The translations under genes and the position numbers were made by a program. 64,000 nt of DNA, from assembly GCA_977017645.1 (NCBI GenBank), contig OZ360229.1, positions 111,910,001 through 111,974,000 on the forward strand, given 5' to 3'. Position 1 is the first letter of the stretch; every line of letters begins with the position of its first letter. The notes beneath the pieces were generated by a model, which worked only from the letters and a program-made list of their open reading frames with translations, did no database searches and was not told the origin of the DNA. The stretch comes from Torpedo marmorata. Lineage: Eukaryota. Positions 21,010-45,766 of this stretch are shown here, piece by piece.

Positions 21010-22015
21010 TTAAAATGCAGAAGGACTTGGGAGTGCTCGTGTATGAATCGCAAAAGGTTGGTTTGCAGGTGCAGGAGGCTATCAAGAAGGCAAATGGAAT
21101 AAAATAAAAACACAAAGCTGGAGAAACTCAGCAGGTCAAAGAGTGTCCTTTATATAGCAAAGATAAAAATACATAACCGACATTTCAGGCTAGAGCTTTT
21201 CACCAAGGTATGGAAAAATGTTGGCAGGTGTCTGAATAAAAAGGTAAGGGGGGAGGCGTGAGGGGAGGAGCATGGTAGCTTGAGAGCAGCAGGGATTACA
21301 GATGGGAAGCAGTGAGAAAGAATCCCACAGAACTCCCTTCGGAGAGCAAAGGAGAACTTCTTCAGGGTAGGCATCCCACGAAGAGATTTCACAGAGTTTT
21401 GCAGTTGGCCTTCATTACTAAAGGGATTGAATTTAGGAGCAGGGAGGTTATGCTGCAACTGTAAAGGTACTGGTGAGGCCGCATCTGGAGTACTGCGTAC
21501 AATTCTGGTCTCCTTTCTTGAGGAAGGATATACTGGCTTTGGAGGTGGTGCAGAGGAGGTTCACCAGGTTGATTCCAGAGATGACAGGTTAGCCTATGAG
21601 GAGAGATTGAGTCATCTGGGACTGTAATCACTGGAATTTAGAAGAATGAGAGGAGATGGAAATGTAGAAAATTATGAAAGGAATAGATAAGATAGAGGTC
21701 AGTAAGTTGTTTCCATTGGTGGGGGAGATTGGAACTTGGGGATATAGCTTTAAGATTCAGGGTAGTAGATTAAGGATGGAGATGAGGAGGAAATGCTTTT
21801 CCCAGAGGGTGGTGAATCTGTGGAATTCTCTGCCCATTGAAACAGTGGAAGCTACCTCAGTAAATATATTTAAGACATAGTAGGGGAATTGAGGGGGGAA
21901 AAGGCAGGTAGATGGAGATGAGCCTATTATCAGATCAGCCATGATCTCATTGAATGGCAGAACAGGCACGACGGGCCGGTTGGCCTACTCCTATTTCTTA
22001 TAATTTTTATGTTCT
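21010..22015 (+). mobile_element. CR1 LINE 3' portion, interrupted by a Penelope-like fragment (about 21101-21403, minus)
   Basis: QKDLGVLVYESQKV...[40 protein letters not shown]1 sequence resumes across the insert (GGAAT|GTTGGCCTTCATT). Confidence 0.85.
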
Positions 22016-23256
22016 TGTGCTCTAAAATTATAATTAACATATTAGAACCATATGCTTGTCCTGCAACATTTTAGATCCAATGATTCACAATTTTAAAAAT
22101 AAAAACAAACTGCAATTGCTGTAAATCTGAAATAACCAAAAATTCTCAATGTTCAGCAGCTCAGGCAATGAAAGGTCATCAACTTGTAAAATCAACTCTT
22201 TTCATCTCCACAGATGCTGCCTCTCCTGCATGTTGCTTTTCTTATTTTAGTCAAAAGTTAGATTTGCTTTGAGAATTTCAGGCCAATGGCAATGAGCAAC
22301 CAAAGCAGCAAGATATCAACAATGCAAATTCCAATAAGGCACACAAACACTTTGTTGAATGGAATCCTGCAGTAGGGATTGAAATTCATTTGAACTGTCC
22401 ATGATATTTACAATACATTTGCATCTTAAATGCTTTATTTAAAAAAAATAACACAAGAACAGCTGAGTTTCTCCACCACTTCCGTGTATTGTAATACATC
22501 AAGTCTAAGTCTATTTTCAGCACATTGGAATTCAATTTGCAATGAACCAATGTATTAATGATCACCCACATGCAGTAGGGGTGACTGGACGTAAATCATG
22601 AGCCAACAGATGAGGAATCCAGCATCTGGCGTCTATGGCCATGCCAAGTACAATCAGTATTAAACATAAGCCATGGCAGTAAAGTTTAGGATGATGTGGC
22701 AGAGAATCATTTAGCTCATACATTGGATGGAGCTTCTGTGACCAAAAGGTTATCGAAGAGAAGTAACGTCTTTCAAGTTTGTTCAGCAAACAATTGGATT
22801 TAAAGCAAAAGAAAAGTTGGTGGAAAAACTTAGCAGCAGCTGCGAAGAGAAATGGAGAGTCGACACTTCAGGTTGAGACTCTTCATCAAGACTCGAGATG
22901 CTCCAGATTCCAGCATCAGCAGTCTCTCCAACAGGATTTAACACTCAGCAGCACAGAACCATTTTTATAATTTATCTTTGGTACATAAAATGATTGAAAG
23001 CAAACTTGACCTGATGAGTTTCTCCAGCAATTTTGTGTATTCACTACAATCACAGTGGCTGGAGACTTTCCTGTTTAAGAGCAAACTTGTATTGTTTGTG
23101 CAATGTATAACTGAATTTAAAGATGCAATTGTGTAATTTATTTCATATACAACCAGGAACATATTGGTTCCTAGAAAATATTCACTATTCTGCATGCACA
23201 AGCAAGAGCTAAAATTTACTTTAGTCTAAGTTGCTGAAAGCAGAGTGGCTCCAATA

Positions 23257-43400: not shown

Positions 43401-45766
43401 ACATGTGAAATAATGTACCTTCATGAACATTACATCTATCACACATAGATGATATAATTAATGAAAATTTAGACAGTAAAGGTTTCGAGTAATGAGCTCT
43501 ATGAACTACTTTGAATTGAATTAAATTATGTCTTGCACATAATGAAGAGGTATGGATATGGTCCAAAATATTGGACCACACTGAAGGTGAAAAAACTTCT
43601 TAAAAAATCTTTCCCAAGCCTCCTTTATTTTATCCACATGCTGTATCACATTTTCTTTTGAAAGGTTATAAAATACTGACAATGGTTTTGGTATATCAGG
43701 AGTGATAGTAAAAAATCTTTTCTATGATTACTAACTTTAAATCTAAAGGAAACTCCAATCTCAAGGAATTTATAAAATTCCTAACTTGAAAGTATCTAAA
43801 ATAATTGTTTCTAGATAAGTTGTACTTATTAACCAACTGTTCAAAAGTAATAAAATTAGAATCTATAAACAAGTTTTTAAATGAACATATACCGTGATCT
43901 TCCCAAATATGGAACCCTCTATCCCCACTTGCTGGGGTAAAAAAGGTATTGAAATTTATTGTACTATCAAGCAAGAAATTAAGGAAATTATTTGCTTTTC
44001 TGAATTGGAACCATATTTTTAACGTTTGTTTAACTATCTTGTTATTAGAAATTTTGGAATATTTAAAGGGTTCCTAATATAGATACTAACGGATGTTTAC
44101 CTATAACCTTCATTTCTGATTTCATCCATTTAAATCTTTCTTCATAATTCTTAAAAAGTATCCAAATATTAATAAATTTAATGTTAGCAGCCCAATAATA
44201 ATTCCTGAAATTAGGTAAAGCAAAACCACCCTTGTGGTTTGTCATTTTGTAGTACTTCCTTTCTTACTCTTGGTCTTTTACCATTCCAAATAAAGGACAA
44301 AATTAAAGAGTCTATTTGATCAAAAAATACTTTAGGGAGAAATACTGGAAGTGCTTGGAATACATACAAAAATTTAGGTAAAATAATCATTTTTATAATG
44401 TTTATATGACCAATTAATGACATAATTAACGGAGACCACCCTTTAGTTAAATTTTTAACTTTATTCAATAGAGGAAGAAAATTATCTTTATATAGGTGAT
44501 CAAATTTCACTGTAATGTTAACCCCAATATATATTAAATATTTTTAAACTACCTTAAAAGGAACCTGAAATGGTAGTACATGAGGTGATTTTATCACCAT
44601 TAATTCGCTTTTACCTAAATTCAATTTATATCCCGATAAACTTCCAAATCTATCCAGTAATTGTAAAATCACTGGAACAGAGTTTTTAGGATCTGAAACA
44701 AAGAGCAGCAGATCATCTACATATAATGATACTTTATTTTCCATTCCCTCTCTTACGATACCTGTAATATTTTCTGATTGTTTAACTGCCAATGCTAATG
44801 GTCCCAAAGCAATGTCAAATAATAATGGGCTTAGTAAAAATCCCTGTCTCGGCCCTCGGGATAAATTAAAAGGCAATGATTTCATTGAATTTGTAACAAC
44901 CCTAGCCAGTGGTGAAGCATAGATTATCTTAATCCAATTAATAAATTTTGGTCCAAAATCAAATTTCCCCAAAACCGTAAACAGGTAATTCCACTCCACC
45001 CTATCAAAGGCCTTCTCAGCATCTAATGAAATTACACTTTCAAAGGGAGTCTGCACTGGAGAATATACTATATTTAACAACCTCCTTATGTTGTACTGTA
45101 TATGTCTTCCTTTAATAAAACCTGTCTGATCTTCCAAGATAATTAAAGGCATAATTTTTTTCAATTCTTTGTGCCAATATCTTGGATAATATTTTAGCAT
45201 CAACATTAAGTAAAGATATTGGGCAATATGAGGCACAGTCTAATGGGTCCTTATTCTTTGTTAAAATCAATGAAATAGAGGCTTCATAAAAAGTTGGAGG
45301 TAATTTTCCTTTATTGAACATTTCAACTAAAGTGGTATTTAAATAAGGAATTAATAAATCTGCAAAAGTTTTATAAAATTAAACTGGAAACCCATCAGGA
45401 CCAGGTGTCTTTCCAGATTGTAGCTTACAAATTGCTTCCGCTATCTCTTCAGAGGTTATGGCTTTCTCCAGAGTCTCTCTTAACTCTATTGGCAGAGAAG
45501 GAATATCCAGTTCATTTAAGAACCTATGAATTGCCTCATTGGGTTCCGTAACTTCTGAACTATAAAGTTTGAAATAATACATGCGGAAGGTTTCATTAAT
45601 TTCTTCCAAATCTAATGTTTTTGTCCCATCTTCCTTTCTAATCTCAGATATCATTTGTTTAACATAATTATGTTTAGTCTGATTTGCTAGTAATTTCCCC
45701 ACTTTCTCACCATGTACATAGTAGTTTGACTTAATTTTAAGCAAATATGATTCAATCGGATATGTT
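34491..45766 (+). repeat. 11,276-bp tandem segmental duplication, copy 2
   Basis: See copy 1; one substitution noticed (A32603 vs T45600). Confidence 0.98.

Follow-up and report, generated by a model that had tools for sequence, protein, structure and literature searches.

Does an L1 retrotransposon ever leave, in place of a target-site duplication (TSD) of ordinary length, a duplication of more than 11 kb? The question is raised by a 64,000-base window of the Torpedo marmorata genome (contig OZ360229.1; all positions given here are those of the whole window), in which a truncated L1 lies between two nearly identical copies of one block. A first-pass annotation had attributed the duplication to the insertion of the L1 itself. 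Our analysis favours the same explanation, which we regard as fairly probable: a recent L1 retrotransposition, finished at a distant break, made an 11,276-bp TSD. The duplicated unit and its L1 are present in the assembly as described, and the duplicate-L1-duplicate arrangement is, with good confidence, a real feature when all biological explanations are counted together. Confidence in the various explanations is expressed as a matter of judgement, not of computation.

Structure of the duplication and of the inserted L1

Alignment of the window to itself with BLASTN confirmed the repeat and its offset of 12,997. Positions 21494-32769 match 34491-45766 in a single alignment of 11,276 bp with one mismatch and no gaps (99.991% identity), and the edges of shared identity are sharp, at 21493 and 32770. 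The two copies share 11,215 31-mers at this offset, the next-best offset having 88; in shuffled versions of the window the longest exact repeat was 15-17 bp (five shuffles of five). All seven homopolymers of at least 8 bp, a T15 run among them, agree between the copies, as does a (TA)7 run. There are no N bases in the window, and hence no gap between the copies of the sort that marks false heterotype duplications. By rough intervals, recognisable repeats make up about 55% of the duplicated unit.

As previously annotated, the only sequence between the copies is a 1,721-bp, 5'-truncated L1, and its poly(A) tail begins where copy 1 ends. The element is on the minus strand and comprises 474 open codons of ORF2, a 279-bp 3' untranslated region (3' UTR) and the tail, read as T16 from 32770 (Table 1). 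The 3' UTR, the poly(A) signal and the poly(A) tail thus stand together at one junction, as in target-primed reverse transcription (TPRT). The frame is that of an L1-clade ORF2 and stays open right up to the 5' junction. Its zf-RVT match (E 0.0054) falls short of the curated cut-off; longer ORF2 relatives carry the reverse transcriptase (RT) domain in 11 of 11 cases and the endonuclease domain in 10 of 11. Stops or frameshifts are present in all three related L1 copies of the window and in no part of the insert. Since each of the six L1 insertions that could be sized in the window is shorter than 5 kb, the 1.7-kb length of the insert is ordinary. A near-source L1 was not found among sets of 11, 8 and the best 150 of 4,184 matches, in which the closest proteins are about 50-55% identical (50-53% over long stretches); the closest named L1 match, from Hypanus, has 53% identity, and a relative within the window is 75% identical. 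Transduction by the L1, 3' or 5', was considered as a source of the extra block and rejected: the block is local sequence that bears no separate tail, and the L1 lacks its 5' end.

Both outer junctions of the structure are native. On the right, the end of copy 2 displays the empty site ATGTT/AATAATAAAA just as the first-pass annotation had read it. What that annotation overlooked is that the nick lies in ORF2 of an older minus-strand L1 with a 12-bp TSD of its own. This host L1 continues in one frame over 45766/45767 but is broken at 32769 in copy 1, and it must predate the duplication, because its 12-bp TSD sits at 29690, 42687 and 47297 only. On the left, the break at 21494 does fall inside a CR1 element, whose frame continues unbroken over 21493/21494 and aligns across this point with another CR1 of the window. 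The outer junctions being native, the earlier allele had a single copy of the block and no insert, and both new junctions are on the young L1.

The layout of the new junctions is that of a TSD. The direct duplication abuts both ends of the element, stopping at 32769 and resuming at 34491. Its length of 11,276 bp is outside the canonical range (about 5-30 bp), and no match of 5-20 bp to the end of copy 1 was found within 34300-34700. The nick ends in T and is able to prime on poly(A); its sequence, TGTT/AA, is one base off TTTT/AA. Apart from canonical TSD length, the feature has every testable property of an L1 insertion whose TSD is very large. A long terminal repeat (LTR)-type element with giant terminal repeats would have repeats bounded by TG...CA and an outer TSD of 4-6 bp; this candidate was rejected, the unit ending in TT and both its ends cutting through older repeats.

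Table 1. Coordinates of the duplicated block, the inserted L1, the junctions and the control insertions.
Feature	Position	Strand	Remarks
Duplicated block, copy 1 (11,276 bp)	21494..32769	+	left flank natively continuous; ends at the putative nick
Duplicated block, copy 2	34491..45766	+	right flank natively continuous; host ORF2 alignment keeps one frame, 46188-45163
CR1 segment with distal breakpoint 21494 (limits approximate)	21405..22005	+	its cut 3' part opens copy 2
Young 5'-truncated L1, 1,721 bp, sole sequence between copies	32770..34490	-	best PDB matches LINE-1 ORF2p, E 3.5e-23
Unbroken A16 tail (T16 on +)	32770..32785	-	adjoins two terminal T of target, 32768-32769
L1 3' UTR, 279 bp	32786..33064	-	AATAAA poly(A) signal 27 nt from end
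L1 ORF2, C-terminal 474 codons plus stop	33065..34489	-	no stop or frameshift; begins near residue 790 of full ORF2
Novel 5' junction, L1 to cut CR1	34490..34491	.	only junction telling rival explanations apart
Older host L1, 3' part, in copy 1	29702..32769	-	ORF2 cut at about residue 349 by new insertion; left TSD 29690-29701
Older host L1, uncut over 45766/45767, 4,598 bp	42699..47296	-	TSD 42687-42698 and 47297-47308; pre-insertion state
Empty target site ATGTT/AATAATAAAA	45762..45776	+	putative nick on + between 45766 and 45767
Sole copy difference, derived base in copy 1	32603	+	A (Phe); 45600 in copy 2 is T (Ile, ancestral)
Control: sister-subfamily L1, 1,047 bp (51129-52175)	51116..52188	+	13-bp TSD (51116/52176), nick TTGTT/GT
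Control: more distant L1, 60% identical	55442..61905	-	15-bp TSD 55442-55456 and 61891-61905, nick AACTT/GA; contains nested L1

Probable completion at a distant break and its competitors

Four features support duplication in the course of L1 insertion: the geometry, a young L1 that is still intact, a 3' junction primed from T and breakpoints without homology. To that extent the first-pass proposal stands; its claim of a single event goes beyond what the sequence establishes, and explanations based on two haplotypes also fit. In the explanation that we favour, ORF2p would have nicked the plus strand at ATGTT/AA within the AT-rich older L1, as expected from known TPRT, and the freed TT end would have primed cDNA synthesis on the poly(A) tail, synthesis halting after 1.7 kb. 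For the cDNA end, the partner would then have been a DNA end inside the CR1, 11.3 kb leftward, joined through a microhomology of 0-6 nt and taking the place of the usual nick 10-20 bp away. The intervening 11.3 kb would have been copied by host synthesis, whether by strand displacement between two staggered nicks, by capture of a sister-chromatid break or by break-induced replication, routes that the sequence fits alike. Both parts appear young, with one difference per 11,276 bp in the block and 474 open codons in the L1, and insertion and duplication may have arisen as one event. At the 5' junction, codon phase and the residues of relatives just upstream make a microhomology of 0-6 nt possible, and one of at least 1 nt likely. 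Bases are clean to the last position on both sides of 34490/34491, with no N, and neither break showed a stable hairpin (-0.6 to -3.5 kcal/mol).

Neighbouring L1 insertions serve as controls. Five others in the window have short TSDs, four of them of 13, 15, 12 and 9 bp and the fifth a 12-bp candidate. The L1 at 51129-52175 had been cited in the first-pass annotation as a member of the insert's family with a normal 13-bp TSD. The TSD is there; the family assignment was too close, since the element is only 76.4% identical to the insert (BLASTN; 78.7% in the final ~800 bp of ORF2) and is therefore placed in a sister subfamily. Comparison with a neighbour of 89% identity gives its 5' end a probable 2-nt microhomology. 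The nick follows TT and precedes a purine in the insert and in both relatives with clear TSDs (3 of 3; background frequency of TTR 0.047 per position), and two host-family insertions lack this pattern. The large-duplication type thus accounts for one of the six TSD-defined L1 insertions, a proportion from which no frequency can be deduced, because it comes from one window flagged for that very case.

Several points weigh against the distant-break explanation. The duplication is known from the sequence of one assembly. The nick preference is based on three sites, and TT/AA sites are frequent (1,182 strand-counts in the window). Microhomology at the 5' junction is only bounded, at 0-6 nt, for want of a source L1 to compare. 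The one base at which the copies differ is 166 bp away from the L1 tail, a proximity that a random later mutation would have with a chance of about 3%. The haplotype rivals predict the 3' junction equally well. Finally, the partners of the 5' junction are both repeats, a kind of sequence at which contigs frequently end, and a long read is itself of the order of 11-13 kb.

The main rival, which we hold to be unlikely, is a false duplication made in assembly from the two haplotypes of an animal heterozygous for an ordinary L1 insertion. The contig of the L1 haplotype would end at 34490 and the next, from the empty haplotype, would start 11.3 kb earlier, with a gapless join. Such an error predicts that copy 1 should end at the tail and copy 2 at an empty site, and for this reason the strongest evidence of the first-pass annotation does not discriminate. 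It would also account for a sole copy difference that adjoins the L1 and for the repeats on both sides of the 34490/34491 join. Within one scaffold, false heterotype duplications arise commonly; they are favoured at homozygous/heterozygous boundaries and sometimes result from wrong gap filling, and gapless ones are documented (PMC9516828). They resemble the present case in having adjacent near-identical copies beside a possibly heterozygous variant, but a gap usually lies between the copies (PMC9516828), and here there is none. Neither is there any shared sequence for an overlap join, and on either side the sequence remains clean right up to the join. Reads able to overlap 11 kb should, by inference, also be long enough to cross an L1 measuring a few kb. 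Moreover, in a no-recombination coalescent, two haplotypes would differ at one site or fewer with a probability of 8-28% at diversities of 0.002-0.0005 and of 72% at 0.0001; these diversities are assumed and not this species' own, 0.002 being the value for another species, the epaulette shark (PMC10587355).

The duplication may also be real without being the product of one cis event. In a two-step form, a normal L1 insertion would be followed by a non-homologous duplication breaking inside the L1 and rejoined to the empty homolog; in an inter-homolog form, a break on one homolog would receive the TPRT intermediate formed on the other. Either would give the same layout and explain the copy difference as a haplotype difference, and for tumours it has been proposed that L1 cDNA is joined to breaks that already existed at a distance (PMC7058536). 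However, the two-step form requires a second rare break falling inside the few kb of L1 itself, and 5' truncation is normal for TPRT in the window; for either form, copies so nearly identical are less likely if they stem from two haplotypes. We consider an origin of this kind improbable, more so than the assembly error.

The polarity of the copy difference bears on a further alternative. Isoleucine, the residue encoded in copy 2, is present at this site in 11 of 11 full-length ORF2 relatives (left out were five rows scoring 41 or less, taken as spurious, and three proteins that did not cover the site), so the ancestral base is in copy 2 and the derived one in copy 1. Conceivably, RT abandoned the L1 RNA once 1.7 kb had been made and continued for 11.3 kb, back to the nick, on a local unspliced RNA or a DNA strand, thereby making copy 2. 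Such a template switch is compatible with the layout and requires no second nick, and template jumping is a described behaviour of long interspersed nuclear elements (LINEs) (PMC2912911). Yet copy 2 should then be the error-prone product, which the polarity contradicts; moreover, the 11,276 bp are free of indels, and there is no sign of a transcript. A template switch is therefore very improbable. If the difference is a later germline mutation, the duplication would be ~63,000 generations old (95% range 1,600-353,000) at a rate of 7e-10 per base per generation, determined in another species, a shark (PMC10587355). With its position 166 bp from the L1, a repair error, a sequencing error or a haplotype difference also fits.

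The presence of the nick in another L1 of the same orientation brings in homologous recombination, either unequal, between repeats, or between the cDNA and a resident L1; chimeras of cDNA and resident L1 have been described (PMC5223499). The best local matches of each L1 end with the matching outer flank span 12 and 27 columns and are out of register, and this lack of in-register homology rules out unequal crossing-over. Insert and host L1 share only about 44% DNA identity, and the 5' join is in the CR1 and not at the homologous position of the host. Non-allelic homologous recombination was rejected on the same grounds, as there is no long in-register homology at both breakpoints. Of the explanations weighed, recombination is the hardest to credit. 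Once formed, the duplication is likely to be lost through recombination between its copies.

Comparison with known L1-associated duplications

Gilbert is said to have described, in 2002 and 2005, large TSDs made by L1 in cultured human cells. In HeLa cells large TSDs are found in fewer than 10% of events, and values tabulated for cells deficient in nucleotide excision repair (NER) reach 6,765 bp (PMC5223499). These events are similar to the present one in combining a truncated L1, an A-tail at a T-rich nick and a direct duplication of kilobase size, and a distal second nick has been proposed for them. They differ in that they involve an engineered human L1, mostly in NER-deficient cells, and reach 6,765 bp in the tabulated values, whereas here an endogenous fish-type L1 is associated with an apparently constitutional duplication of 11,276 bp. 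The duplication thus exceeds the largest cell-culture TSD tabulated there, and ordinary controls with TSDs of 9-15 bp adjoin it. For reference, the median length of canonical TSDs in humans is 21 bp (PMC12350158), and long TSDs accompany 5'-truncated L1 (PMC2912911). As to nick preference, the available text of PMC3747384 names L1 endonuclease groups without stating one.

In tumours and L1-induced clones, tandem duplications of 1-10 kb are regarded as large TSDs (bioRxiv 2024.12.14.628481), and one L1-associated tumour duplication reaches 22.6 Mb (PMC7058536). The duplicate-L1-duplicate arrangement and the endonuclease motif at the 3' junction are shared with our case, and sister-chromatid capture or break-induced replication has been proposed (PMC7058536; bioRxiv 2024.12.14.628481). 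Those duplications are somatic, human and supported by reads, and range up to 22.6 Mb; ours is a feature of an assembly.

The first-pass annotation had placed large L1 duplications mainly in human cell assays and tumours, which is too narrow, as similar structures come from human long-read genomes and from an algal LINE. With xTea, 24 duplications mediated by the insertion of a transposable element (TE) were found in 20 human samples, 18 with Alu and 6 with L1 (PMC8219666). There too a non-reference TE lies between two copies of one region; the genomes are human, and sizes are absent from the text and three supplement files (PMC8219666). In mutation-accumulation lines of Chlamydomonas, the LINE Dualen-4b made duplications with a median of 900 bp (PMC9977147). 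These are heritable LINE insertions with long TSD-like flanking duplications in a non-mammal, and in that respect are alike; Dualen-4b belongs, however, to a dual-endonuclease clade and makes such duplications habitually, whereas the L1 described here has neighbours that make TSDs of 9-15 bp. Cases from fish, or from any other vertebrate outside the mammals, did not appear in the titles and opening parts of abstracts of the literature, in searches that never combined shark or ray with duplication terms; absence from print is not thereby established.

The class of mechanism is thus already known, and the present locus is a large example of it, with controls in the same window, from a fish-type L1. 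If supported by reads, it would be a clean natural case of an L1 insertion making a segmental duplication outside mammals, and distal completion of TPRT would be peculiar neither to human L1 nor to cultured or tumour cells. Duplicate-L1-duplicate is a simple pattern for genome scans, and also a structure that the purging of false duplications could wrongly remove or wrongly keep. Such duplications may have been overlooked because TSD finders look below 50 bp, purging tools may delete them and recombination collapses them. That the fish-type L1s of rays regularly finish insertion at breaks many kb away, giving recurring 1-20 kb tandem duplications in cartilaginous fish, is a doubtful extrapolation.

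Gene content and other elements of the window

No effect of the duplication on a host gene was found. Among 103 ORFs (open reading frames) of at least 45 aa starting in 21000-33000, and five others, Pfam searches returned only RT, zf-RVT and two weak matches below cut-off, and none of 81 ORFs of 28-44 aa (22000-26350 and 28300-29700) had a match. No host exon was thus detected in the duplicated unit by these scans, which short or Pfam-less exons could escape. An exon-like ORF at 28988-29326 was rejected as a host exon, as it resembles an R2-type retrotransposon endonuclease (E 0.0043); the frame is decayed, is like the R2-type restriction-like endonuclease and is duplicated at 41985-42323. In the flanks, the ORFs of at least 55 aa (142 and 87) matched transposon domains and, in two cases, ALKBH8_N; their other matches were weak and below cut-off. 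The two ALKBH8_N ORFs are presumably LINE-derived.

Insertion of an L1 into another L1 is seen three times in the window, counting the duplicated block. A nested stack at 55008-62353 comprises a host-family copy (9-bp TSD), within it an L1 (15-bp TSD) and, within that, a 5-kb L1 on the opposite strand. This innermost L1 starts in the end of ORF1 and has a candidate 12-bp TSD at 55468/60466. At 59669-60455 it ends in a second head-to-tail copy of its last ~400 bp, 83% identical, which is possibly due to a template switch or to a second insertion into the tail. The ORF2 of the host L1 contains, at 46154-46510, a 357-bp element of 61% GC with TG...CA ends and perfect 7-bp terminal inverted repeats, flanked by 4 bp with one mismatch; it is probably a solo LTR.

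Decayed Gypsy-type gag-protease frames lie at 19242-20670. All five of their matches are from Mobula or Hypanus (62-71% identity), which, with Hypanus also giving the closest named L1, agrees with the earlier suggestion of a non-mammalian genome and makes a batoid fish the probable source. Penelope-like fragments occur in 14806-17512 and 26588-27470, with a GIY-YIG match at 15272-15562; for the other fragments the Penelope label is tentative and comes from similarity. Sequences like 5S rRNA (Rfam) at 3291-3409, 53227-53336 and 16052-16122 are contained in 90% identical repeats of ~230 bp, probably a 5S-derived short interspersed nuclear element. A GC-rich minisatellite with 27/53/80-bp units, followed by a 32-bp tandem repeat, occupies 9260-9809. 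At 1094-1379 there is an imperfect palindrome of ~290 bp, 74% self-complementary, possibly a miniature inverted-repeat transposable element.

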